A stretch of DNA of 64,000 nt from Vulcanimicrobiota bacterium (GTDB lineage Bacteria > Vulcanimicrobiota > Vulcanimicrobiia > Eremiobacterales > Eremiobacteraceae), in contig CAWDVP010000002.1 in the NCBI GenBank assembly GCA_963805945.1, positions 384,001 through 448,000 on the forward strand, written 5' to 3'. A program made the translations under genes and the position numbers. The stretch's first letter is position 1; every line of letters starts with the position of its first letter. Under the pieces are notes generated by a model. That model made no database searches, was not told the DNA's origin, and saw nothing but the letters and a program-made list of their open reading frames with translations. Positions 28,581 through 48,163 of the stretch are shown here, one piece after another.

Positions 28581-29788
28581 GCGCGTTCGGCGCACCGGCG
28601 CTGCCGCGGCCGCAGCGATCGTCGTCCGCCGCATGGACGGCGTTGGCGGTGTTCGCGTTCGCGCTCGCGGTGTATCTGCTCTCCACCGGCGGCAAGCATG
28701 CGTTCTACGACAACTTCATCCGCCTCGCGTACGCGTTCGCGCACGGCAGAGTGTGGATCGATTGGCCGGGGCCGGCGATCGAAGCGCTCGAGTTCGGCGG
28801 ACAGCACTACGTCATCGAAGGCCCGATCCCGGCGATCATGGCGATGCCATTCGTGCTGTTGTTCGGGCTCGATGCGAACCAATCGGTCGTCTGCGCAATC
28901 GCAGCAGCCATAGGGGTTTGCGCGGTTTGGCTGATGCTCGGCGGGATGCGCGTCTCCACCGAGACGCGCGTCTTCGCCACCATCTTCTTCGGCTTCGGCA
29001 CGGTGTATTGGTGGTGCGCCGCGTTCGGCTCGTTGTGGATGTACGCGCACGTCACTGGCGCGATGTTCGCCGTAATCGCGCTCGCGGAATGGTACGGCAA
29101 GCGGCGACCGTGGCTGCTCGGCGTGCTGTTCGCGTGCATGGCGCTGTCGCGTTTCTCGATGGCGCTCGCCGGCATCCCGTTCATCGTATGGCTGCTGCTC
29201 GAGACGCCGCGCGGCGGCCGGCTGCGTGCGCTCGGCGAAGCCACGCTCGGCGCATTGCCGTTCTTCGCGCTATTCCTCGTCTACAACGAAGCGCGCTGGG
29301 GCACGCTGCAGGACATCGGCTACACCACGTGGTTCCACCAGGATCCGGTCGGCTCCACGACCGGCAGCCCGTTCCAACTGCGCTTCTTGCCGGCCAACCT
29401 GTACAGCTTCTTGATGCTGCCGCCGGACTATTCCGTCTACTTCCCGTGGCTCAAGCTCAACGGGTTCGGCGTCGCGCTCACCTTCACGAGCCCGGCGCTC
29501 GCGCTCGCGTTCTTCGCTCCCGCGCGCAACCGTGAGACGTGGTTCCTGTGGGCGGCGACGCTGCTGGCGGCGATCCCGTCGCTGCTCTACTACGTCAACG
29601 GGTTCGAACAGTTCGGCATGCGCCACTCGCTGGACTTCACGCCGTTCATGCTGCCGCTCGTCGCGCGCGGCCTCGAGCGCATCAAAGCGCTGTTCGCGTA
29701 CGCGCTCGTGGCGATCTCGGTGCTCGCGAACGGCTACGGCGTGTGGTATTCGTGGGCATACCACGCGTACGCGGTGGTGCCGCGCTAG
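28577..29788 (+). CDS. Polytopic membrane protein, probable GT-C-fold glycosyltransferase
   Basis: About 10 TM helices, YNEARWG loop, QFGMRHSLDF motif. Confidence 0.6.
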   Translation: MSAFGAPALPRPQRSSSAAWTALAVFAFALAVYLLSTGGKHAFYDNFIRLAYAFAHGRVWIDWPGPAIEALEFGGQHYVIEGPIPAIMAMPFVLLFGLDANQSVVCAIAAAIGVCAVWLMLGGMRVSTETRVFATIFFGFGTVYWWCAAFGSLWMYAHVTGAMFAVIALAEWYGKRRPWLLGVLFACMALSRFSMALAGIPFIVWLLLETPRGGRLRALGEATLGALPFFALFLVYNEARWGTLQDIGYTTWFHQDPVGSTTGSPFQLRFLPANLYSFLMLPPDYSVYFPWLKLNGFGVALTFTSPALALAFFAPARNRETWFLWAATLLAAIPSLLYYVNGFEQFGMRHSLDFTPFMLPLVARGLERIKALFAYALVAISVLANGYGVWYSWAYHAYAVVPR

Positions 29789-29863
29789 CGGGCGGACGAC
29801 GTCGCTTGCGACCTGCGCCATAGAGGTGCGTCACGGGGAGTCCGGCGAACGCGCCGCGCGACG

Positions 29864-30574
29864 ATGAGCGAGACGAAAAAAGCGACGCAGACCGCGAAGA
29901 TCCTCGTCGTCGACGACGAGGCGGCGATACTGCAGACGCTTCGCTACAATCTCGAGAAGAACGGCTACTCAGTGTGCACCGCCGGAGATGGACGGCGCGC
30001 GCTGTCCGTCGTCGAGCTCGAGAAACCCGACCTCATCGTGCTCGACATCATGCTGCCGGAGCTCGACGGCATCGAGGTCTGTCGCGAGATCCGCAAGCGC
30101 TCGACGACGCCGGTGCTCATGCTCACCGCCAAAGATCAGGAGATCGACAAAGTCCTCGCGCTCGAGATCGGCGCGGACGACTACATCACCAAGCCGTTCT
30201 CGGTCTACGAACTGCTCGCGCGCATCAAAGCGCACCTGCGCCGGCTCCAGACGCAAGCGCAGCCGTCGGAGACCGGCATCGTGCGCTCCGGCGACGTCGA
30301 GCTCGACGCAGGCCGGCACCGCGTCACCAAGCGCGGCGCGACCGTCGAGCTGGCGCCGAAGGAGTTCCGCCTGCTCCAGGTGCTGCTCGAGAACAAGGGG
30401 CGCGTCGTGACGCGCCAGGTGATGCTCGATCGGGTGTGGGGCTACGACTTCTACGGCGATCTGCAGACGGTGAACGTCCACATCCGTTGGCTGCGCGAGA
30501 AGATCGAAGACGATCCAAGTGATCCCAAATACATTCTCACCGTGCGCAGCCGCGGGTATCTTTTCAAGGACTAG
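29864..30574 (+). CDS. phoB: OmpR-family response regulator, PhoB/PhoP-like
   Basis: VVDDE, LDIMLP, ADDYITKPF, TVNVHIRWLREKIE; in the pho/pst locus. Confidence 0.85.
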   Translation: MSETKKATQTAKILVVDDEAAILQTLRYNLEKNGYSVCTAGDGRRALSVVELEKPDLIVLDIMLPELDGIEVCREIRKRSTTPVLMLTAKDQEIDKVLALEIGADDYITKPFSVYELLARIKAHLRRLQTQAQPSETGIVRSGDVELDAGRHRVTKRGATVELAPKEFRLLQVLLENKGRVVTRQVMLDRVWGYDFYGDLQTVNVHIRWLREKIEDDPSDPKYILTVRSRGYLFKD

Positions 30575-30594
30575 CCAAACCAGAGCCCACTCGC

Positions 30595-31689
30595 ATGTCG
30601 ATCTTCGACGCTTTCCGCAGACAGCCGGCCGCGCCGGACGAGGCCGAGCCGGGATCCCAGCACGCCGCAGCGCAGCTCGAGCGTTTCGACGAGCTTGTCG
30701 ACGCGTTGCCCGTCGGCGTCATCGTGGTCGGCGACAACGGCCGCGTGACGTTCTTCAATCCGGCCGCGGCGGAGATCTTCGGCGTGCCGCCGGAGCGCGC
30801 GCTCGGCCGTGCTCTCATCGAGAGCGTCCGCAGCTACGAGCTCGACCGGCGGCTGTCGAACGCGCTGCGCTTCGGCATCGAGCAGACAGCGGAGCTCACC
30901 TACAACGCGGGCACCGCGCGCAAGCTGGAGGTCACGACGAAGCCGCTGCGCGGCGGCGATGCCCGCCGCGAGGCGGTGGCCGTCGTCCACGACCTCACCC
31001 GCGTGCGCGAGCTCGAGGCCATCCGGCGCGATTTCGTGTCGAACGTCTCGCACGAGCTGCGCACCCCGCTCACCTCGGTGAAGATCATCGTCGAAACGCT
31101 GCAGGACGGCGTCGACAAGAAGACCCAGACCAAATTCCTCGGCGACGTCGCCCGCGAGACCGACCGGATGATCGCGCTCGTCGAGGACCTGCTCGGCCTC
31201 GCCAAGCTCGAGAGCGACACGCCGGCGGATCCGTTCGCGCCGGTCGACCTGTGCGAGCTGTGCCGCGAAGTCGTCGCGACGCAGCTGCTGCGCGCGACGC
31301 AGCTCAACGTGGAGCTGCAGCTGCGCACGCCCGAGGAACCGGTCGTCATCCAGGGCGACCGCGATAAGCTCGTGCAGGTCGTCGTCAACCTGCTCGACAA
31401 CGCGCTGCGGCTCACGCCGCCCAACGGTCACGTGAAGGTCTCGGTCCAGCGCGGGCCCGACTTCGCCGAGATCGCGGTGGCGGACGATGGGCCGGGCATC
31501 GCGTCGTCGGCGCTGCCGCATATCTTCGAGCGCTTCTATGTCGTCGAGCGTTCGCGGGCTCGCGCGGCCACCGGCACCGGCTTGGGTCTCGCGATCGTGA
31601 AGCACATCATGGAACTGCACGACGGCACGGTGGAAGCGGAAAGCGAGCTCGGAGCCGGCACGGTCTTCCGCTGCCGTTTCAATATTTAA
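30595..31689 (+). CDS. phoR: PAS-HisKA-HATPase sensor kinase, PhoR-like, no TM helix
   Basis: RRDFVSNVSHELRTPLT, NLLDNA, DDGPGI, FERFY, GTGLGLAIVKH. Confidence 0.88.
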   Translation: MSIFDAFRRQPAAPDEAEPGSQHAAAQLERFDELVDALPVGVIVVGDNGRVTFFNPAAAEIFGVPPERALGRALIESVRSYELDRRLSNALRFGIEQTAELTYNAGTARKLEVTTKPLRGGDARREAVAVVHDLTRVRELEAIRRDFVSNVSHELRTPLTSVKIIVETLQDGVDKKTQTKFLGDVARETDRMIALVEDLLGLAKLESDTPADPFAPVDLCELCREVVATQLLRATQLNVELQLRTPEEPVVIQGDRDKLVQVVVNLLDNALRLTPPNGHVKVSVQRGPDFAEIAVADDGPGIASSALPHIFERFYVVERSRARAATGTGLGLAIVKHIMELHDGTVEAESELGAGTVFRCRFNI

Positions 31690-31700
31690 CGCCGCCATGG

Positions 31701-31729
31701 TTTACAAATGTCCGGTTGCGGCCTATAAT
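31701..31729 (+). promoter_or_regulatory. Sigma70-type promoter for phoU
   Basis: TTTACA-N17-TATAAT. Confidence 0.7.
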
Positions 31730-31763
31730 GCAATGGGTACTTTTGTCATGGGGGTCTAGATCT

Positions 31764-32498
31764 TTGGGTCGCGAGAATTTCCACCGCATACTCGATGAGA
31801 CGCAACAGGACACGCTGCGGCTCGGCAGCCTCGTCGAAGAGGCCACGTCGAAGTCCGTCGATGCCCTGACCCGATCCGATGTCAAGCTGGCCGACGAGAT
31901 CCTCGAGGCCGACGACATCGTCGATGATCTGTGCGTCCGCATCGAGACCAACTGCCTCAACCTGCTCGCGCTGCAGCAGCCGATGGCGTCCGATCTGCGC
32001 ACCATCGCGGCCATGCTCGACATCATCATCGACCTCGAACGCATCGGCGACCACGCGTGCGACATCGCGCAGATCACCAAGAACCTCGCGGCCGAGCCGC
32101 AGCTCAAGCCGTTCATCGACATCCCGCTCATGGCCACCGCCGCGCGCGAGATGCTGCGCGAGTCGCTCGACGCCTTCGCCCAGCACGACTCGGAGATCGC
32201 GCATCGCGTGCCGGCCAAAGACGACGAGGTGGACCGTCTCTATCGCTCTGTCTTCAAAGAGCTCATCGAGTTCATGGCCAAGGACCCCAAGGCCATCAAC
32301 CGCGGCAGCAACCTCATCCTCGTGGCGCTCTACCTCGAGCGCATCGCCGACCACGCCACTAATATCTGCGAACGCGTGGTGTACATGGTCGAGGGCGTGC
32401 CGAAGCACTTGAAGCGCTCGGTCGTCGAGATGAACCAGGCGATCGCCAACAGCGAGGCCGTCGGCGCCCGCACCGTGAGCGACCCGGCCGCGACCTAG
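31764..32498 (+). CDS. phoU: Phosphate signalling protein PhoU
   Basis: QQPMASDLR, DLERIGDHA, LERIADHATNICE; TTG start after GGGGGT. Confidence 0.95.
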   Translation: MGRENFHRILDETQQDTLRLGSLVEEATSKSVDALTRSDVKLADEILEADDIVDDLCVRIETNCLNLLALQQPMASDLRTIAAMLDIIIDLERIGDHACDIAQITKNLAAEPQLKPFIDIPLMATAAREMLRESLDAFAQHDSEIAHRVPAKDDEVDRLYRSVFKELIEFMAKDPKAINRGSNLILVALYLERIADHATNICERVVYMVEGVPKHLKRSVVEMNQAIANSEAVGARTVSDPAAT

Positions 32499-32500
32499 CC

Positions 32501-32541
32501 CCTTAACCCAGCCTTAAGCAAACCATAACATCGCCTTCAAG
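32501..32541 (+). promoter_or_regulatory. Pho box array upstream of pstS
   Basis: CCTTAACC (32501), CCTTAAGC (32512), CCATAACA (32523), CCTTCAAG (32534): exact 11-bp period. Confidence 0.8.
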
Positions 32542-32619
32542 CCGTTGCGCTACGGTCAGTGAGGTGCATTTCTCACTAACACACCGCGCGATTTTGTCGC
32601 GTGCAGGAGCGCTCACACC

Positions 32620-33651
32620 GTGAAGATTTCCCGCAAGGCCCTCGTGGCCGCCGCCATCGTCGCCGGCCTCATCGCCCCGATGGCCGCCTCGGCCGACACC
32701 CAGTTCCTCGGCGCAGGTTCGACGTTTGACGCGCCATTTTTCTCGCGCGCATTCTACGCCTACAGCCAAGAGCACGCCGGGGTCACCGTCAACTACGCGA
32801 GCATCGGTTCTGGCGGCGGCATCTCGCAGTTCACCGCGAAAACCGTCGACTTCGGGGCCACCGATGTTCCCCTCAGCAAAGCCGAGCTTTCGGCTGCGAT
32901 GGACGCCAACGGCGCGGTGGTGCAGTTGCCCGTCACGCTTGGGGGCGTGTGCATATCGTACAACGTGCCGAACATCTCGAAGCACATCAATATGACGCCT
33001 ACCGTTCTGGCGAACATCGCACTTGGCCGGGTCACGAACTGGAGCGATCCTTCCATCGCGGCTCTCAATCCAGGCGTGAAGTTCCCCAGCCTTGCGATCC
33101 TGTGGGTCCACCGCGCCGATGCGAGCGGCACATCGTACATCTTCACCGACTATATGTCCAAGATCAGTCCGGAATGGAAGTCCAAGGTCGGAGTCGGCAA
33201 GTCGGTCAATTGGCCGGTCGGAGTCGGCGCCAAAGGCAACGAAGGCGTCGCTGGGCAGCTGAGCAATTCGCCCGGCGGCATCGGCTATATAGAGCTCGCC
33301 TATGCGCTGCAGAACGACATCTCCTTCGCGGCGATGCAGAACAAAGAGGGGGCGTACGTGCTGCCGTCGATCGACTCGGTTCGTTCGGCGGCCGCGCAGA
33401 AGCCTGATGTCAGCCCGACCGACTTCTCGATCGTGGACCTCGGCGGCAAGGATAGCTATCCCATCTCGGGTTACTCGTGGGTCATGGTGTGGAAGAACCA
33501 AGCGGATCCGGCGCGCGGCAAGCAGCTCGCCGACATGCTCAAATGGTTGGTCACCGGCGGCCAGCAGCTCGCCACAAAGGTGAACTATGTGGGACTGCCG
33601 GAGAACGTGCAACAGGAGGCGCTCAAGGCGCTCGGCTCGATCCATTCGTAG
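32620..33651 (+). CDS. pstS: Phosphate-binding protein
   Basis: GAGSTF, YASIGSGGGI, DFGATD, HRADASGTS, YPISGYSW. Confidence 0.96.
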   Translation: MKISRKALVAAAIVAGLIAPMAASADTQFLGAGSTFDAPFFSRAFYAYSQEHAGVTVNYASIGSGGGISQFTAKTVDFGATDVPLSKAELSAAMDANGAVVQLPVTLGGVCISYNVPNISKHINMTPTVLANIALGRVTNWSDPSIAALNPGVKFPSLAILWVHRADASGTSYIFTDYMSKISPEWKSKVGVGKSVNWPVGVGAKGNEGVAGQLSNSPGGIGYIELAYALQNDISFAAMQNKEGAYVLPSIDSVRSAAAQKPDVSPTDFSIVDLGGKDSYPISGYSWVMVWKNQADPARGKQLADMLKWLVTGGQQLATKVNYVGLPENVQQEALKALGSIHS

Positions 33652-33751
33652 GCGGAATTCCTAAGCGCGGCCGAACAGGCGGTGAGGAATCAGGTGACAA
33701 AGCCTGAGGGGGTCACCGCCTGACGCGTTCGCTGCCCCGAAGACGGAGAGC

Positions 33752-34729
33752 ATGTCGCACAATAGCGCCGAACTGGTAGGAGCGAGCTCGGCTTCCGCCG
33801 CACGAATCGCAAGAGCGCGGATCTCGCCCGCCGGCGATCGCGTCTTCATGTTCCTCCTGCACTCATCTGCGTGGCTGGTGCTGGCAGTCGTTCTCGCCCT
33901 GTTCCTGGTGCTGCTGCAGCGCTCGTGGCCCGCCATCCAGCACATAGGGTTGGGTGCGTTCACCTCGCTGTGGGACCCGAACGGCGGGCACTTCGGCGTC
34001 ATGACCTTCGTTTTCGGCACGATCGTCACGTCGATCATCGCTCTTCTCGTCGCCGGCCCTATCGGCATCGGCGCAGCGCTCTTCCTCGCCGAACTGGCGC
34101 CCCGACGACTCGCAACGCCGGTCGCCATGCTCATCGAGCTGTTGGCCGCCGTGCCTAGCGTCGTGTATGGCCTGTGGGGCCTCTTCGTGCTTGGGCCCGC
34201 TATCCGCATCGTCATCGGACCGGCGCTGCAGAAGGTCTTCGGCTTCTTGCCGCTGTTCCAAGGACCGATCTACGGCTTCGGCATGCTGGCGGGCGGGCTC
34301 ATCCTCGCGATCATGGTGGTGCCGACGGTGGCCGCGATCTCGCGCGACGTGTTCGAGGCCGTGCCGAACGATCAACGGGAAGGCATGCTCGCGCTCGGCG
34401 CGACGAAGTGGGAGATGCTGACCAGGGCCGTGCTTCCGTACGCGAGCTCAGGCGTGATCGGCGCGCTGGTGCTCGGCGTCGGCCGCGCGCTCGGCGAAGC
34501 GATGGCGGTGGTCATGGTGATCGGCAACAAACCGCAGATCGCGGCGTCCTTATTCGCGCCCGGCTACACCATGGCGAGTGTGCTCGCGAATGAGTTCACG
34601 GAGGCGACAGGCAAGGTGTACATAGCCATGCTCATCGAGATCGGACTGCTGCTCTTCGTCATAAGCTTGATCGTCAATGTCTTCGCGCGCATCCTGGTGT
34701 GGAACGCGAGCGGCCGGGGTCGCAGGTGA
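33752..34729 (+). CDS. pstC: Phosphate ABC permease PstC
   Basis: ELLAAVPSVVYGLWG, EGMLALGAT, GRALGEAMAV. Confidence 0.95.
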   Translation: MSHNSAELVGASSASAARIARARISPAGDRVFMFLLHSSAWLVLAVVLALFLVLLQRSWPAIQHIGLGAFTSLWDPNGGHFGVMTFVFGTIVTSIIALLVAGPIGIGAALFLAELAPRRLATPVAMLIELLAAVPSVVYGLWGLFVLGPAIRIVIGPALQKVFGFLPLFQGPIYGFGMLAGGLILAIMVVPTVAAISRDVFEAVPNDQREGMLALGATKWEMLTRAVLPYASSGVIGALVLGVGRALGEAMAVVMVIGNKPQIAASLFAPGYTMASVLANEFTEATGKVYIAMLIEIGLLLFVISLIVNVFARILVWNASGRGRR

Positions 34730-35577
34730 AGGTCTTCGATCTGAAGTCGTTCCGCAAGGCCTGGAGCAACTTCATGGTCGCGGTGAGCGCGCTGTGTGCA
34801 GGTGTGTGCGGCGCGGTGTTGGTGATCGTCGTCGTCTTCGTCATCGGCAAGGGCTACAAGGCCCTCAACTGGAGCTTCTTCACCAAGCTGCCGCTGCCGG
34901 TCGGCATAACGGGCGGCGGCGTCGTCAACGCGATCGTCGGTTCTGGAGAGATTATCGCCATGGCGTCGCTTCTGGCGGTGCCGATCGGCGTCATGGCAGG
35001 CATCTACCTAGCGCTCTTTGGGCGCGGTACGTTGGCCGCGTCGGTGCGCTTCTACAGCGACGTGCTCACCGGCATGCCTTCGATCGCGATCGGCGTGTTC
35101 GCCTACGCGCTCGTCGTCATCCCGACGGGCCACTTTTCAGCGCATTCTGCCGCGGTGGCCCTTGCCGTGATCATGCTGCCCATCGTCGTGCGCACGACGG
35201 AAGAATCCGTCCGCCTCGTCCCAACCGTGATCCGTGAGGGCGCGTTGGCGCTGGGCATCCCCGCATGGAAGGCGACGCTGCTCGTGACGGTGCCGGTCGC
35301 GCGGCCGGGCATCGTGACCGGCGTCTTGCTCGCGGTCGCGCGTGTCGCCGGCGAATCCGCGCCGCTGTTGTTCACCGCGTTCGGCAGCCAGTTCTGGCCT
35401 CACGGGCTTGCATCGCCGACCGCGGCGTTGCCGCTCATCATCTTCCAATATGCGATCTCACCCTATGCCGACTGGCAGCAGATCGCATGGGGCTGTGCTC
35501 TCGTGCTCGTCGTGCTGGTGTTCACGCTTAACCTCGCTGCGCGCTTGGCCTTCTCCGGCCGCGTTTCCGCGAACTAG
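34726..35577 (+). CDS. pstA: Phosphate ABC permease PstA
   Basis: [27 protein letters not shown]. Confidence 0.95.
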
Positions 35578-35596
35578 GGGAGAGAAGAAGTTGATC

Positions 35597-36404
35597 ATGG
35601 TGACCGAGCCAGCGGCGACGAAGACGGGTGCGACCAAGCTTGAGGTGAGGAATCTGAGCGCTTACTACGGCAAGCACCAGGCCGTCAAGGACATCAACAT
35701 GCGTTTCGAGTCCGGCTTGATCACCGCGCTGATCGGCCCCTCGGGTTGCGGCAAATCGACCCTGCTCCGCTGTCTGAATCGCATGCACGAGGTCATCCCC
35801 AACGCGCGCGTCGAGGGCGAAGTGCTGCTCGACGGGGACGACCTCTACGCATCGGGTGTTGATCCGACCGATACCCGCCGGCGTGTCGGCATGGTATTCC
35901 AGCGGCCGAATCCCTTTCCGACGATGTCGATCTTCGACAACGTCCTCGCCGGGGTCCGCTTGGCCGGCAAACCGCCAGGAAGCGCGACGCTCGGCGAGAT
36001 CGCCGAGAAGAGTCTGAGGCGCGCGGCGCTGTGGGAAGAGGTCAAGGACAAGCTCCATAAGGCCGGCACCTCGCTCTCCGGCGGCCAGCAGCAGCGGCTG
36101 TGCATCGCGCGCGCGCTCGCGGTCGATCCCGAAGTGCTGCTCATGGACGAGCCGGCGTCGGCGCTCGATCCGATCTCCACCATCAAGATCGAAGAGCTGA
36201 TGCGCGAGCTGCAAGGGCGCGTACACGATCATCATCGTGACGCACAACATGCAGCAGGCGGCGCGCGTCTCCGACTACACCGGCTTCATTCTCGCGGGCG
36301 AATCGGCGACCGGCGAACTGGTCGAGTTCGACGTCACCTCGAAGATGTTCACCACGCCGAAAGACAAGCGGACCGAGGACTACATCACCGGCCGTTTCGG
36401 CTAA
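35597..36404 (+). CDS. pstB: Phosphate ABC ATPase PstB (frameshift near 36215)
   Basis: [35 protein letters not shown]; then [10 protein letters not shown] and [10 protein letters not shown] in the shifted frame. Confidence 0.95.
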
Positions 36405-36437
36405 AGGTCGGTCCACCGCGGGGTCGAATCTCCCCGC

Positions 36438-37256
36438 GTGTCCCCTCTTTCGGAGCGTTCTCTCGTCGCGCTCGCGCGCGTATGCGCCGCGTTCGTCGTC
36501 GTCTTCCCCGGGCTCGTCATCCTCACGCTCGCCATCGGCACGGCGGTCGCGGTCGCGCGCGGCCTCGCCTCGATCGGCTTCGCGCACGGCCTCGTCATCG
36601 GCGCGACGACGCTCGGACTCGCGGTCGTCGCGGCGACCGCCGGTTCGGCTGCGGGCGTGGCGAGCGCCTTGTTCACCGTCGAGATCGCGCCGGCGCGGCT
36701 GCGGCAGACCGTCAAAGCGCTTGTCGGCGCGCTCCACGCCGTGCCCGCGGTCGGCTTCGGGATCGCCGCTGCGGGCGCGCTGCTGCTTCCCGCCGCCACG
36801 CCTTCGCCGCTCGCGACCATCGCGCTCGCGGCGCTCGTCCTCACGATCATGATCGCGTCCGTCGTCTTCGCCCAGACGCGCGGCGAGCTGGCGCGCGTGC
36901 CCGCCGCGATGCGCGAGTCGGCGCATGCGGCCGGCGCCGACGGGATGGCGATCGCGCTGCGCGCGATCTTGCCGGGCATGCGGGCATCGCTCGCCGGCAT
37001 CTGGTGGTCGGCCTTCGCGCTCGCGCTCGGCGAGGCGACCGCGCTCTCGATGATCTTCAGCGCCGCAAGCAGCAGAGTCGCGTCGAAGGCGGCGTGGGCG
37101 ATCGACGGCACGCTGGCGAGCATCCTGCTCAACTCGGGCGCGAACGGTTTTGGCGCGCAGACGTTGGGGTTGGCGCCGGTCGCGCTGTGCCTCGCCCTTG
37201 TCGTGCTCGCGGCGGTCTTCTTCGGACGCCGCGCGATGGGCACGCAATGGCGATAG
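36438..37256 (+). CDS. Divergent PstC-like permease
   Basis: [22 protein letters not shown] loop [15 protein letters not shown] in place of RALGEA. Confidence 0.8.
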
Positions 37257-38086
37257 ACGCGACGCGTCCGCAGCCGGCGGTCGAACGATTCGGTTCTCCG
37301 GCGCGCGCCTTGTTGTTCCTGTCCACCGCCGCGCTGTGCGCCTCCGGCATCGGGCTGATCGGCTGGCTGATCGCCGCCGCATTGCCCAGCGCGCTGCCGC
37401 AGCTTCATCCGGCCGATGGTGTCGGCGTCATCGGTCCGCTCGGCGCGACCATCTACGTCGTCACCTTCGCCCTTCCGTTGACGGTGCTGGTCGGCGGGCT
37501 GGCGGGTGCGAGCATCGCTGAAGGGCGTCTGTTCGGCTCGCGGAAGCCCGCGTTTCGCGCCGCGTTCGACTTCATCGGCAGCCTGCCGACCATCGTGGTC
37601 GCCTTCGCGGTGCTCGTCGCCGCCATCATGCTGGGTCTGCGGCCTTCGCTCAATCTCGGCGCGTGCGCGGTCGCGCTCGCCAACCTGCCGCTCATGGCGA
37701 CGCTCACCGCCGGAATCCTCGCCGATGCGTCGCGCGACTCGAGTGAGGCGGCGACCGCGCTCGGCGCTTCGCCGTCGTTCATCATCTGGAGAGTGGCGTT
37801 CGTCCGAGGCAGCCGCCGGCTCTGGGCCGCCGTCGTCAGCATCGCGACCCAGATGACCGGCGCGGCGGCGGCCGTCATCCTGCTCGCGAGCGCCCATACG
37901 TCGACCCTCGGGACCACGCCGCTCGGCTCGTGGCCGCTCGCGGTGCAGATATGGACGCGCTCCACCGACGCCGCGGCATACGGCGCGACCGCCGCGAGCA
38001 CGATCGTGCTGATCCTCTGCGTCTGGCTGCTCCAAGAGCCGCTGCGCTCAGGGGTCGCCTCGGGCGCGGCAGAGGCGAACAAGTGA
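37247..38086 (+). CDS. Divergent PstA-like permease
   Basis: SLPTIVV, EAA loop [25 protein letters not shown] in place of ARVAGESA. Confidence 0.75.
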
Positions 38087-38859
38087 GTCAGGAACGCACG
38101 CCGCTCGAGACCAAGATCGAATTGCTGGGCGTCAGCGTGTGGTACGGGCAGCTGCAGGCGCTGCGCGACGTCAGTTTCGACGTGCCGTCCAAGACGACGA
38201 TCGCGCTGATCGGGCCAGGCGGTGCGGGCAAGACGACGCTGTTGCGTGCGCTCAACCGGATGCACGACCTGGACCATGACGTGCGGGTCGCCGGCAGCAT
38301 CAAGATCGACGGCGCGGAGATCCTGGGAGCCGGCGTGGATATCGGCCGGCTGCGGCGCAACGTCGGCATGCTCTTCGCGGCGCCCACCATGCTGCCGTCG
38401 AGCATCGCCGACAACGTGACCTTCGGCCTGGCGGCCCAGGGCGTGCGCGATACGCGCGTGCTCGACGAGGCGTGCGAACGCGCGTTGCGGCGCGTCGCGC
38501 TCTGGGAGACGCTGCGCGGGCAGACCGCGGCGCCGGCGGTCTCGCTGCCGCTCGACGTGCGGCAGCGCATCTGCCTGGCGCGGACGCTCGCCCTCGATCC
38601 GGACGTGCTGCTGCTCGACAACCCGACCGCCCTGCTCGACTCGAACGCGGCGCTCGCGGTCGAGGACATCATCGCCCGCTTGCGCCGGGATCATACGGTC
38701 ATCATCGCCACCAACGACCTCCAGCAAGCCGCCCGGCTGGCGGACGTCACGACGTACATGGCACACGGCGAGATCGTCGAAATGGGCGATACGACGCTCG
38801 TCTTCAGCAAACCGACGGACGCGCGGACCGAGGCGTTCTTGTCGGGTAGGGCTTCATGA
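38083..38859 (+). CDS. PstB-like ABC ATPase with degenerate catalytic motifs
   Basis: PstB hallmarks ([26 protein letters not shown]) and Walker A GPGGAGKT present; Q-loop, signature, Walker B Glu and H-loop altered. Confidence 0.88.
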
Positions 38860-38869
38860 GGATACGACC

Positions 38870-40279
38870 GTGAGAACTGATACGCGACCTGCTTCGGCGC
38901 TCGGGCCGCTGCGCGACGACGGGATGTTCTACTACGACTCCGCGCTCGAGGTCGTCGGCGCGACGCCGCTCGTGCGCTTGCAGCGCGTGATGGGCGACGC
39001 GTACTGCACCGTGCTCGCGAAGATCGAGTTCGTCAATCCCGGCGGCTCGGTGAAGGACCGGCCTGCGCTCGCCATGGTCGCGGATGCCGAGCAGCGCGGC
39101 CTGCTCAAACCCGGCGGCACGATCGTCGAGCCCACGTCAGGCAACACGGGCGTCGGACTCGCCATGGTCGCCGCCATCAAACGCTATCGCTGCATCCTCG
39201 TCATGCCCGACAAGGTGAGCGAGGAGAAGATCCGCCTCCTGCGCGCCTATGGCGCGGAAGTCGTCATCACGCCGACCAAGGTGCCGGCGAGCAGCCCGGA
39301 GTCGTTCTACGGCGTCGCCGCGAAACTCGCGAGCGAAATCCCCGGCGCCTTCATGCCTAACCAGTTCGCGAACGCGATCAACCCGAAGTCTCACGAGCTG
39401 ACCACCGGCCCTGAGATCTGGGAGGCCACCGCCGGCAAGATCACCCATTACGTGAGTGGCATCGGCACCGGCGGGACCATCTCCGGCGTCGCCCATTATC
39501 TAAAGAAGAAGAACGCCGCCATCATGGTGGTCGGGGCCGACCCCGAGGGCTCGATCTACTCAGGCGACACCGCCAAGTCGTACAAGGTCGAGGGCATCGG
39601 CGAGGACTTCTTGCCGGCCACCGTCGACCTCAAGGCGATCGACCGCATCGAGCGCGTGTCGGACAAAGAATCGTTCCTCATGGCGCGGCGGGCGTGCCGC
39701 GAGGAAGGCCTGCTCGTCGGCGGTTCGTCGGGCACGGCGCTCGTCGCGGCGTCGCGGCTCGCACGCGAGCTGCCGGCTAGCGCGATCGTCGTCGTGCTCC
39801 TGCCGGACAACGGCCGCGGCTATCTGTCGAAGATCTTCAACGACGAGTGGATGACGGCCAACGGCTTTCTCGGTGAGCAGGGCCGCGGCGCCACAGTGGG
39901 CGATGTCCTGCGCGCACGCGGCAAAGGCGAACCGCCGCCGCTCATCACGCTGGCGCCGGAAGATCCGGTCAAGCGCGGCATCGAGCTCATGCGCGAATTC
40001 CAGATCTCCCAGATCCCGGTGGTCGATCGCGGCGAGATGGTCGGCAGCATCAACGAGGTCGCCGTGATGCAGTTGATCTACGATCGCGCCGACGTCGCGC
40101 ATCAGGCGGTCAAAGACGTCATGGGCCGGCCGTTCCCCATCCTCGAAGAGCTCGACGAAGTCGAAAAGGCGTACAAGGAGCTGTCGCTCGGCCATGCCGC
40201 CGTCGTCGTCGCCCGCAAGGGCGTGCCGATCGGCGTCTTGACGAAGATGGACATCATCGCGCATCTCTCGGGAAGTTAG
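38870..40279 (+). CDS. cbs: Cystathionine beta-synthase with C-terminal CBS pair (alternative start 38924)
   Basis: NPGGSVKDR, EPTSGNTG, GTGGT, VEGIGEDF, GRGYLSKIFNDEWM, CBS domains. Confidence 0.92.
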   Translation: MRTDTRPASALGPLRDDGMFYYDSALEVVGATPLVRLQRVMGDAYCTVLAKIEFVNPGGSVKDRPALAMVADAEQRGLLKPGGTIVEPTSGNTGVGLAMVAAIKRYRCILVMPDKVSEEKIRLLRAYGAEVVITPTKVPASSPESFYGVAAKLASEIPGAFMPNQFANAINPKSHELTTGPEIWEATAGKITHYVSGIGTGGTISGVAHYLKKKNAAIMVVGADPEGSIYSGDTAKSYKVEGIGEDFLPATVDLKAIDRIERVSDKESFLMARRACREEGLLVGGSSGTALVAASRLARELPASAIVVVLLPDNGRGYLSKIFNDEWMTANGFLGEQGRGATVGDVLRARGKGEPPPLITLAPEDPVKRGIELMREFQISQIPVVDRGEMVGSINEVAVMQLIYDRADVAHQAVKDVMGRPFPILEELDEVEKAYKELSLGHAAVVVARKGVPIGVLTKMDIIAHLSGS

Positions 40280-40286
40280 GACACGC

Positions 40287-41423
40287 ATGCACTTCGCCAC
40301 CAGGGCCATCCACGTCGGCCAGGAGGCCGACCCGACCACCGGCGCGACCATCGTACCGATCTACCAGACCACCACGTATACGCAAGCCGCCCCCGGACAG
40401 CACAAGGGCTTCGACTATTCGCGCACCATCAATCCGACGCGCCTGGCGCTCGAACGCTGTCTCGCATCGCTCGAGAACGCGCGCCACGGCCTGTGCTTCG
40501 CCAGCGGCATGGCGGCGACGTCGGCCGTCGCGAACCTGCTCTCGCCGGGCGACCACGTCGTCGTCAACGACGATCTGTACGGCGGCACGTTCCGCCTCTT
40601 CGACAAGGTGAACGCGCGCTTCGGGCTCGAGTTCAGCTATGTCGATGCGACCGACGCGGGCAGAGTCGCGAGCGCGATGCGACCGAACACGAAGATGGTC
40701 TGGCTGGAGACGCCGACCAATCCGCTGCTGCGCCTGGCGGACATCGGCGCGATCGCGCAGCTCGCCCATGCGCGCGGCGCGAAGGTCGCGGTCGACAACA
40801 CGTTCGCGACGCCGTTCCTGCAGAACCCGCTCGATCTCGGCGCCGATATCGTGGTCCACTCGACGACCAAATACATCGGCGGCCACTCGGACGCGCTCGG
40901 CGGTTTCGCCGCGGTCAACGCGCCGGAGCTGTACGAGCCGCTCAAGTTCTATCAGAACGCTGCCGGCGCCGTGCCGGGGCCGTTCGATTGCTTCCTCACC
41001 ATGCGCGGCGCGAAGACGCTGGCGCTACGCATGCGCGAGCACGATCGCAACGCGCGCGCGGTCGCGGATTTCCTCGCCGGGCATGCCGGCGTCGAGCGCG
41101 TCTACTACCCCGGACTGTCCTCGCATCCGCAGCACGACTTGGCCAAGAAGCAGATGCGTGGTTACGGCGGCATGGTCTCGTTCACGCTCAAGGGACCGGT
41201 CGACCGCGCGCGGACGTTCGCCGCGGCGACGAAGCTGTTCTCACTGGCGGAAAGCCTGGGCGGCGTGGAGTCGCTCATCTGCCATCCGGCGACGATGACC
41301 CACGGCTCGATCCCCAAAGACGTGCGCGAGGCGCGCGGCGTCACGGATGGTTTGCTGCGGCTGTCCGTGGGCATCGAGGACGAGGACGACTTGATCGCCG
41401 ACCTCGAGCAGGCCCTCAAGTAG
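40287..41423 (+). CDS. Cystathionine gamma-lyase/synthase
   Basis: YSRTINPTR, ETPTNP, HSTTKYIGGHSD, AESLGGVESL, RLSVGIE. Confidence 0.92.
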   Translation: MHFATRAIHVGQEADPTTGATIVPIYQTTTYTQAAPGQHKGFDYSRTINPTRLALERCLASLENARHGLCFASGMAATSAVANLLSPGDHVVVNDDLYGGTFRLFDKVNARFGLEFSYVDATDAGRVASAMRPNTKMVWLETPTNPLLRLADIGAIAQLAHARGAKVAVDNTFATPFLQNPLDLGADIVVHSTTKYIGGHSDALGGFAAVNAPELYEPLKFYQNAAGAVPGPFDCFLTMRGAKTLALRMREHDRNARAVADFLAGHAGVERVYYPGLSSHPQHDLAKKQMRGYGGMVSFTLKGPVDRARTFAAATKLFSLAESLGGVESLICHPATMTHGSIPKDVREARGVTDGLLRLSVGIEDEDDLIADLEQALK

Positions 41424-41451
41424 AGGACGTCGTGCCCGAGCGAAGCTCGGG

Positions 41452-42276
41452 TCAACCGCCGAGCAGTCTGCTCACCTCTGCGGCGTGGCGCGCCACCTCC
41501 GTCGCGATCTCGGTGAGCCGCTCGCGGTCCACGTGGCGCGAGAAGCCGGCCACCCAAATGACTGCGACGAGCTGACGGCCGGGGCCGAAGATCGGCGCCG
41601 CCGCTGCCCGCATGCCGTCCACGTACTCGTCGATGTCGGTGGCGGCGCCGTCGACCGCCGCCTTCTCGATCGCTTCTTTATACAGCGTGGTATCGCGCAC
41701 GGTGTTGGCGGTGAACGCCGGCAGCCGCACATCGGTGAAGAACACCGCGCGCCGCCGCTCGTCCCAAGCCGAGACGACCGCTTTCCCCACGGCCCCCGCC
41801 AGCAAGGGGATCGCCGAACCTATAGGGGCTGAGATCGACATGGTCGGCCGTCCATGGACGAGGTCGAGGATGGTCACATGGTCCTCGGCAGGGACGCCGA
41901 GAAAGCTGGTCTGCTCGGTGACCGCGGCGAGGTGCTCCAAGGCGGGCCTCGCCAGCTCGCGCAGATCGCGCTGGCCCGCCGATCTGGAGGCGAGGGCATA
42001 CAGGCCCGCGCCGAGGCGATAGCGCTTCGTGCCGTTGCCGGCTTCGACGATGCCGAGCGACTCGAGCGTCGTCACCAGACCGTGCACCGTGCTCTTGCCC
42101 AGGCCTAGCGTGCGCGCGAGTTGGGAGACGCCGAGGGGTTCGGATGATTCGCTCAGCGCCCCGAGCAGCCGGAATGCCTTGTCCACTGCGGGGACGACTG
42201 CTGCAGGGCGCTCCTGCTCGGCTGCCTCGTCCTCGCCGTTCTCGGGGCTAGGCTTCCCGTTCGGTGGCGTGAACAT
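41452..42276 (-). CDS. IclR-family transcriptional regulator (start uncertain)
   Basis: AVDKAFRLL, LGLGKSTVHGLVTTL HTH, GAVGKA, EYVDGMRAAAAPI. Confidence 0.9.
   Translation of the reverse strand: MFTPPNGKPSPENGEDEAAEQERPAAVVPAVDKAFRLLGALSESSEPLGVSQLARTLGLGKSTVHGLVTTLESLGIVEAGNGTKRYRLGAGLYALASRSAGQRDLRELARPALEHLAAVTEQTSFLGVPAEDHVTILDLVHGRPTMSISAPIGSAIPLLAGAVGKAVVSAWDERRRAVFFTDVRLPAFTANTVRDTTLYKEAIEKAAVDGAATDIDEYVDGMRAAAAPIFGPGRQLVAVIWVAGFSRHVDRERLTEIATEVARHAAEVSRLLGG

Positions 42277-45903: not shown

Positions 45904-48163
<2,260 letters not shown>

Follow-up and report, generated by a model that had tools for sequence, protein, structure and literature searches.

A diverged pstCAB-like module conserved beside the canonical phosphate transport genes of Eremiobacteraceae: a candidate regulatory complex

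We analysed a window of 64,000 nucleotides of DNA (positions 384,001 to 448,000 of contig CAWDVP010000002.1, assembly GCA_963805945.1) from a soil bacterium whose homolog names place it in Candidatus Eremiobacterota/Eremiobacteraceae; its genome assembly has 2.3 Mb in eight contigs and is 82% complete. A gene cluster at positions 29864-41423, entirely on the + strand, contains genes for a response regulator (RR), PhoR and PhoU followed by a canonical pstSCAB set and, immediately downstream, by a second set of genes for two permeases and one ATP-binding cassette (ABC) protein, designated here pstC', pstA' and pstB' (Table 1). The initial annotation had described the latter as three uninterrupted, coupled open reading frames located past pstSCAB, and our coordinates and overlaps agree with this; pstC' begins 33 nt past the pstB stop. 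Comparative analysis of the sequences indicates that pstC'A'B' is a conserved, selected module and not a decaying duplicate.

Table 1. Features of the pst region in the window.
Feature	Position	Strand	Remarks
phoB-like response regulator gene	29864..30574	+	domain search
phoR-like histidine kinase gene (PAS-HisKA-HATPase)	30595..31689	+	no N-terminal membrane segment
phoU	31716..32498	+	Pfam PhoU, two stretches
putative Pho box	32502..32539	+	CTTAA-like units each 11 bp, upstream of pstS
pstS	32620..33651	+	single copy in assembly; Pfam PBP_like_2; own-genome search
canonical pstC	33752..34729	+	TIGR02138, 306.9 bits, above cut-off; aligned to 9k3s_B
canonical pstA	34699..35577	+	TIGR00974, 259.9 bits, above cut-off; aligned to 9k3s_A
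canonical pstB	35597..36404	+	all catalytic motifs canonical; split by one extra base within 36212-36217
pstC', diverged PstC-like permease	36438..37256	+	272 aa; GTG start
pstA', strongly diverged PstA-like permease	37247..38086	+	279 aa; ATG start; 10-nt overlap with pstC'
pstB', PstB-fold ATP-binding-cassette protein	38083..38859	+	258 aa; GTG start; GTGA overlap with pstA'
pyridoxal phosphate (PLP) enzyme with CBS domain (cystathionine beta-synthase-like)	38870..40279	+	starts 10 nt past pstB'
Cys/Met-metabolism PLP enzyme (cystathionine gamma-lyase/synthase-like)	40287..41423	+	

Sequence motifs were read by BLASTP against the neighbouring canonical genes and by phmmer against the chains of Escherichia coli PstSCAB (9k3s/9k3x). 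PstB' is 42–43% identical to the neighbouring PstB in BLASTP and contains an incomplete catalytic set, in which an intact Walker A (GPGGAGKT) and the Walker B Asp are kept and the other four elements are replaced. Thus, the Q-loop changes from VFQRP to LFAAP, the signature from LSGGQ to LPLDV, Walker B from LMDEP to LLDNP, with Asn in the place of the catalytic Glu, and the H-loop from VTHN to ATND, with Asn in the place of His. All these changes, as well as the preservation of Walker A, had been pointed out in the initial annotation and are confirmed here. The same states, including LLLDNP, are found in a protein from an independent metagenome contig (P0002, 96% identical to PstB'), indicating that they are not assembly noise. 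The best family for PstB' is TIGR00972, with a full-length match of 259.9 bits that is below the cut-off of 343.2. Its AlphaFold2 model (predicted local distance difference test, pLDDT, of 91.4) has the fold of PstB, with chains 9k3s_C and 9k3x_C as top Foldseek matches (for 9k3x_C, template-modelling (TM) scores of 0.91/0.95 and a root-mean-square deviation of 1.4), and the protein keeps the region facing the coupling helix.

The motif substitutions recur in relatives, as evaluated over 54 distinct PstB' sequences (19 from genomes plus 35 cluster representatives). The Q-loop Gln is kept in none of them, with Ser, Thr, Ala, Pro, Gly or Asn in its place; the first signature Gly is kept in one sequence and the second in none, being Asp or Glu in 48, and no PstB' shows an SGG signature (0/54). 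The position of the catalytic Glu is occupied by Asp in 49 sequences, by Glu in three and by Asn in two, those of the window and P0002; the PstB' proteins from genomes G017, G008 and G023 are the ones described below as keeping this Glu. The H-loop His is Asn in 53 of the 54 sequences. The Walker B Asp and the D-loop Asp are invariant (54/54), the Walker A Lys is kept in 50, with Arg in one genus (G009, G018 and G024), and the A-loop aromatic residue is kept in 47 and lost in seven. In all, these alignments show that the residues holding the Mg-nucleotide mostly persist and that those for dimer closing and hydrolysis are gone, which fits a protein that binds nucleotide but does not hydrolyse it. 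This had been the initial proposal, and it is backed by the frequencies of the Walker A Lys, the Walker B Asp and the A-loop aromatic residue, although the binding residues are not universal. Judging from their recurrence, the replacements are under constraint themselves, representing a new conserved state and not drift. Since the defects of one chain lie on its Walker side as well as on its signature side, no consensus ATP site would exist either in a PstB' homodimer or in a PstB/PstB' heterodimer; a second PstB'-type gene was not found at the window locus.

The deduced permeases are also clearly diverged from their canonical counterparts. PstC' shows 29% identity with PstC over a partial alignment, and PstA' can hardly be aligned with PstA (28% identity over 118 residues, E 0.2; both in BLASTP). 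Their best families are TIGR02138 for PstC' (43.5 bits, below the cut-off of 196.45) and TIGR00974 for PstA' (35.4 bits, below the cut-off of 193.45). PstC' lacks about 25 N-terminal residues and a periplasmic loop of about 18 residues that are present in PstC. The AlphaFold2 model of PstA' is moderate (pLDDT 71), and its top matches are 9k3x_A, 9k3y_A and 9k3s_A, with TM scores of 0.65–0.66, the best being 9k3x_A at 0.66. EAA-type loops are present in both permeases, with a core of Ala-x-Gly-Ala-x-Pro that is invariant in the alignment of PstA', and of Ala-x-Gly-Ala in that of PstC'.

In E. coli, inorganic phosphate (Pi) is liganded by PstA Arg220 and PstC Arg237, and the salt-bridge partner has also been identified (PMC12976172, in excerpt). 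Alignment to the solved E. coli chains maps the altered positions of the module to PstC Arg237 and to PstA Arg220/Glu224. In PstC', RALGE becomes LALGE, with Leu as the Arg237 equivalent and the Glu241 equivalent kept; in PstA', ARVAGE becomes TQMTGA, with Gln and Ala as the Arg220 and Glu224 equivalents, respectively. The initial annotation was thus right for the window, both on these two substitutions and on the EAA loops, but the loss of the arginines is not a property of the whole module. Of the 19 PstC' orthologs, 11 retain the Arg237 equivalent; this position is Leu in the seven members of the window's genus (7/7) and Ala in G011, and the Glu241 equivalent is kept in 19/19. Likewise, 13 of 19 PstA' orthologs have Gln as the Arg220 equivalent, and the other six, which belong to two genera, keep the Arg. 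Both permease arginine equivalents are lost only in the window's genus and in G011. Evidently, the ATPase was disabled at the base of the family and the membrane phosphate site decayed later, in some lineages only.

We found an ortholog of PstB' in 23 of the 24 other genomes of the same family, at 51–76% identity and preceded by a canonical pstB at a distance of a few kb; the sole family genome without a match, G021, is 89% complete. A PstB' profile run over 301 genomes of the phylum gave at least 346 bits with 20 of 21 family genomes, whereas all 279 genomes from other families gave at most 322 bits or no match, and the best three of these are catalytically canonical. Unpublished genomes are included in these counts (G010, G013 and G016 in the set of 24 genomes; G013, G016 and six others in the profile set), and none was used for alignments and rates. 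A pattern scan of one genome per species (185,579 species) kept 80 loci, which separate by identity: all 22 loci at 50.8% or more are degenerate, and every one of the 58 with 47.3% or less is canonical, reading K-Q-S-G-G-E-H at seven diagnostic positions. A metagenome scan for the closest relatives retrieved matches at 64–75% identity only.

Syntenic orthologs were searched for in relatives and found, with C', A' and B' all open in 18 of 18 loci from at least nine genera (pstA' was found by profile). The gene order kept is RR-phoR-phoU-pstSCAB, then 0–10 kb of Pho-type genes, then C'A'B' and the PLP enzymes. The same two PLP-enzyme genes are directly downstream of C'A'B' in the 18 loci, with a gap of about 0–60 nt to pstB', and pstB and pstC' are between 33 nt and about 10 kb apart across the loci. 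The genes inserted there include TonB-dependent-receptor-like genes, PF04185 phosphoesterases, an OprD-like porin, a metallophosphatase and a second pstS; the window has no Pho-type insert genes between pstB and pstC'. The initial annotation had noted the lack of a second pstS. This holds for the window, where no pstS lies between pstB and pstC', and for its 82%-complete assembly, in which no second pstS was found, but not for four relatives (loci L035-L038, in genomes G012, G009, G018 and G024), which contain a second pstS, 54–56% identical to the window PstS, between pstB and pstC'.

In all five congeners in which the region is present (L027-L031), pstB and pstC' are separated by about 5.7 kb that is absent from the window, comprising a TonB-dependent-receptor-like gene (CarboxypepD_reg and Plug domains) and a PF04185 phosphoesterase gene. 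This segment was either deleted in the window or collapsed by the assembly.

To estimate selection, we calculated ratios of nonsynonymous to synonymous substitution rates (dN/dS) by the method of Nei and Gojobori in eight close genome pairs. Ratios were 0.035–0.109 for pstB' versus 0.044–0.131 for pstB, 0.090–0.298 for pstC' versus 0.033–0.143 for pstC, and 0.089–0.346 for pstA' versus 0.046–0.111 for pstA. These close-pair values (0.035–0.35) are far below the value near 1 that the initial annotation had associated with pseudogenised copies. Comparison of the window with its nearest congener (G002) yielded higher ratios, of 0.26 for pstB', 0.48 for pstC' and 0.71 for pstA', likely due to dS saturation. 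A special degeneration of the window copy was considered and rejected, because branch lengths estimated with an outgroup show that the window branch is no faster than those of its congeners (ratios of 0.9–1.4, like those of flanking genes); the high values are thus put down to the depth of the comparison. The overall picture suggested by these rates is one of strong purifying selection on pstB' and relaxed purifying selection on the permeases. In an unrooted tree, PstB' proteins form a single clade with 100/100 support and a long stem, outside the clade of the family's canonical PstB. A recent tandem duplication of the neighbouring pstB was therefore rejected as the origin of pstB', whose product does not fall within the canonical clade.

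The CTTAA-like array upstream of pstS (Table 1) is the sole such site in the window and recurs in relatives upstream of pstS and of some of the inserted Pho-type genes; from its 11-bp periodicity and its position, we consider it a putative Pho box. No terminator-like or promoter-like site was found between pstB and pstC', nor between pstB' and the PLP-enzyme genes, and C'A'B' therefore most likely rides the pst transcript in this genome. A hairpin at the start of pstC' (36396-36455) was discarded as a candidate element because it is no more stable than shuffled sequences (z = -1.26), and a search of Rfam gave no match in 29500-41600 with E values up to 0.1.

Our preferred interpretation, to which we assign a probability close to one half but still short of it, is that pstC'A'B' encodes a Pst-derived membrane complex that selection has kept throughout the family without an ATP-driven transport cycle, and whose role would be regulatory rather than pumping. 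PstB' would dock on PstC'A', and nucleotide binding by it is possible. Its lack of a signature motif would prevent closure into the ATP sandwich, and the acidic residue that replaces the second signature Gly would be placed opposite the gamma-phosphate; from these two features, the complex would be expected to stay in an open-cassette, inward-facing resting state. The resting complex might then be a fixed-state input to PhoU/PhoR or a brake on uptake, by analogy with the Q160K mutant of E. coli pstB. This mutation affects the signature motif and is predicted to lock the transporter in an open, inward-facing state, with no transport and with signalling of phosphate sufficiency, whereas starvation is signalled by PstB E179Q, for which a locked-closed cassette is predicted (PMC5775613, in excerpt).

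Extending the analogy, PstC'A'B' could be a locked pseudo-transporter that shows PhoU/PhoR a 'phosphate replete' state, exerting negative feedback on the starvation response, although we regard this more specific proposal as clearly doubtful. If PhoU/PhoR recognise PstC'A'B', the signal would be 'replete', and the module, made together with the Pho-induced pst genes, would damp the starvation response. Being located past the other genes of the pst cluster, downstream of the single putative Pho box, the module would act as a negative-feedback element and not as a second pump. The PhoR-like kinase has 364 aa, with a PAS domain right at the start and no N-terminal hydrophobic segment, and would thus need a partner to reach the membrane; lacking a membrane anchor, it may have the complex as one of its membrane docking sites. 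A structure prediction with PhoU (residues 17-240) and PstB', run without controls, gave scores of 0.01 and 0.00 versus a mark of 0.32, which speaks neither for nor against contact. The excerpts of the PhoU literature that we retrieved do not name contact residues on the PstB side.

Several observations weigh against a regulatory complex of this kind. Nucleotide binding cannot be essential everywhere, given the Walker A Lys to Arg change in one genus and the loss of the A-loop aromatic residue in seven of the 54 sequences. The two genera represented by G009/G018/G024 and G017/G008/G023 retain both arginine equivalents plus the glutamates, and in three of the four loci with a second pstS this gene is directly before pstC'; retained arginines and pstS copies would also fit a residual handling of substrate. 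Additionally, the tightest conserved neighbour of the module is the downstream pair of PLP-enzyme genes, not pstSCAB, and no CTTAA-like array (three units, up to one mismatch) was found directly upstream of pstC' in 19 loci, which counts wherever other genes intervene. Finally, the permeases evolve 4–10 times faster than their canonical counterparts (about 4 times for C' and 6–10 times for A', with about twice for B'), and G+C content is 0.70–0.76 over pstC'/pstA' (36500-37999) versus 0.61–0.67 over pstC/pstA, so that constraint on the permeases is weak. The pstC' and pstA' products are also very Ala-rich, which is consistent with weaker constraint.

Alternatively, PstB' and/or PstC'A' might mix with the canonical subunits, forming inactive hybrids that limit uptake under strong induction; this would be a guard against phosphate overload, a role that in E. 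coli is ascribed to PhoU. The module is in the same cluster as pstSCAB, probably on the same transcript in the window, and PstB' has both the fold of PstB and its coupling-helix region, as would suit a poison subunit, and pairing PstB with PstB' would leave no ATP site with the consensus elements. However, a poison subunit needs no permease pair of its own, with conserved EAA loops and open in 18/18 loci, and the identity of C' and A' with PstC and PstA, of just 29% and 28% over partial alignments, also argues against mixing. We consider this explanation unlikely.

We also find it improbable that PstC'A' still provide a pathway, as a transporter or facilitator, for phosphate or some other oxyanion, energised by PstB or by a residual activity of PstB', or channel-like with PstB' as a gate. 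This would agree with the permease arginines and glutamates retained in the two genera mentioned above, with the catalytic Glu kept in the PstB' of one of them (G017/G008/G023), with the presence of a second pstS before pstC', and with the conservation of the PstC' Glu241 equivalent in every ortholog. Nevertheless, the Q-loop Gln and the SGG signature are absent from all PstB' sequences, PstC' is devoid of the periplasmic loop and N-terminus, and this genome has no second pstS; moreover, both Pi-binding arginines are gone in the window's genus, and these are ligands of Pi in the solved structure (PMC12976172, in excerpt).

It is very unlikely that the module is tied instead to the downstream genes for sulfur amino acids (CBS-like and Cys/Met PLP enzymes), for instance as a sulfur sensor or regulator. 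These two genes accompany pstB' within about 0–60 nt in every relative, whereas the distance to pstB ranges from 33 nt to about 10 kb, and PstA' weakly matches models of sulfate permeases (24 and 23 bits). Such weak sulfate matches are, however, generally given by related type I permeases; the best family matches are Pst models, E. coli PstB and PstA rank first in the structural comparisons, and the genes between pstB and pstC' are of Pho type, some of them behind a putative Pho box. Lastly, that the genes are a functionless remnant of a duplicated pst operon heading for loss is disfavoured and scarcely probable, because the faster rates, the higher G+C and Ala-rich composition, the scores far below the family cut-offs and the ratios of up to 0.71 between the window and its nearest congener (0.48 for C', 0.71 for A' and 0.26 for B') are outweighed by frames open in all loci of at least nine genera, low dN/dS on close pairs with unsaturated dS, a window branch that is not faster and conserved replacement residues.

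A regulatory PstC'A'B' complex would have relatives of several kinds among known systems. The module resembles E. coli PstSCAB (9k3s, 9k3x and 9k3y) in its C-A-B order, the folds of PstB' and PstA', its best profiles and its EAA-type loops, but differs from it in the scores below cut-off, in the loss of the ATPase motifs and, in this genus, of the arginines, in the missing loop and N-terminus of PstC' and in the lack of a dedicated PstS in this genome. In heterodimeric ABC exporters and in CFTR/SUR, a degenerate, non-hydrolysing site is classically recognised by an Asp replacing the catalytic Glu, by an H-loop without His and by a signature that departs from the consensus; in heterodimeric exporters, the degenerate elements of the two chains form one site and the other site is active. 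PstB' differs from these exporters with one degenerate site in being importer-type and in having defects on both sides of one chain, so that its degenerate elements are not confined to one site. There are also transporter homologs turned into sensors or co-sensors, such as UhpC, for which the role has genetic proof and which are for the most part not ABC systems. The module is similar to them in that a paralog of an active transporter is encoded with the cognate two-component system (RR-phoR-phoU-pstSCAB-C'A'B', in the window and in relatives) and is proposed to report instead of carrying, although for PstC'A'B' signalling is inferred. Additionally, the PhnK/PhnL ABC cassettes of the carbon-phosphorus lyase (7z15 and 7z16) appear among the fold matches of PstB'. 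They are, as proposed for PstB', Pho-regulon ABC cassettes with a use other than driving a permease. PhnK and PhnL keep their catalytic motifs and are not known to have permease partners, whereas PstB' is accompanied by permeases and is devoid of catalytic motifs.

Loci with more than one PstB-type gene, with non-equivalent roles, have been described in Enterococcus faecalis (pstB1/pstB2), and we found such pairs in a sister family (L045 and L046). The E. faecalis genes are about 60% identical to each other, both resemble verified PstB ATPases and they share one permease pair (PMC12096839, in excerpt), unlike PstB', which is degenerate and has its own permeases; the sister-family pairs also differ from it in being catalytically canonical. 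A further parallel is the E. coli Q160K mutant, with a cassette unable to close (PMC5775613, in excerpt), of which PstB' would be a natural counterpart with a destroyed signature. Q160K is, however, a single engineered change in the only Pst of the cell, whereas here many changes affect a separate, paralogous complex beside a normal one. Our literature search found no paper joining Eremiobacterota with pstSCAB, and a fully degenerate PstB is not described in the titles and abstract openings of the best literature matches. Each piece of the module is of a known kind, be it a Pst paralog, a degenerate ABC cassette or transporter-linked signalling; we did not find described their combination, that is, an importer-type cassette degenerate on both sides, with conserved replacements and its own permeases, present family-wide beside a normal Pst.

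Phosphate sensing by PstSCAB, PhoU and PhoR is unsettled, and the leading idea, that PhoR reads the conformation of the transporter and not phosphate itself, comes from engineered E. coli mutants. The module would be a natural experiment in this respect, as a second Pst complex that selection has kept across a family and that has just the type of defects by which laboratory mutants separate signalling from transport. If the proposal of a locked pseudo-transporter is true, it would be the natural counterpart of Q160K and a direct handle on the sensing of Pst conformation rather than flux. In more practical terms, the public annotation names these genes 'phosphate transport system ATP-binding protein', which would overcount the capacity for phosphate uptake in Eremiobacterota genomes.

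The canonical pstB had been read through as intact in the initial annotation, and this has to be corrected. With respect to eight relatives, the window gene has one extra base within 36212-36217, where the frame carrying ...ELMREL switches to a second frame; canonical pstB is intact in all relatives carrying it. When the assembly was compared with itself (tblastn of its own paralogs), about 547 kb of DNA had a paralog for comparison, and 30 strict frame-switch junctions were counted there. The assembly thus appears rich in indels, of which the break in pstB is most likely one. Three soil-metagenome runs, with no RNA run among those listed, contained 0.06–0.07 of the sampled words and, at 88% likeness, supplied short contigs, mostly with conserved parts of pstB from other organisms; these contigs are not informative on 36212-36217. 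Were the break real, the strain would be without a working PstB, because the other PstB-like match in the genome (C2:581369-582079), which was considered as a third copy, is an amino-acid ABC ATPase beside a binding protein and a permease and not part of a pst set. Several genes in the assembly have two frame switches each, and one more junction lies in the window near 46865 (C2:430865).

Other PstB homologs deserve mention. In the sister family, a catalytically intact pstB is located right after RR-phoR (L056/G030, L057/G194, L045 and L058), with no pstC or pstA match beside it in two of the four loci; its product is slightly closer to PstB' (45–48% identity) than is the PstB from the window (42%). 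Four metagenomic PstB homologs (P0037-P0040) keep Walker A, the Q-loop, the Walker B Glu and the H-loop His and show a degenerate signature (LPLDQQQR, LSGEQQQR or LPDEQQQR), and may represent a separate class of half-degenerate PstB. Finally, a near-consensus match to a sigma-70-like promoter (11/12) at 31701-31729 spans the assumed TTG start of phoU (31716), and the true start of this gene may be further downstream.

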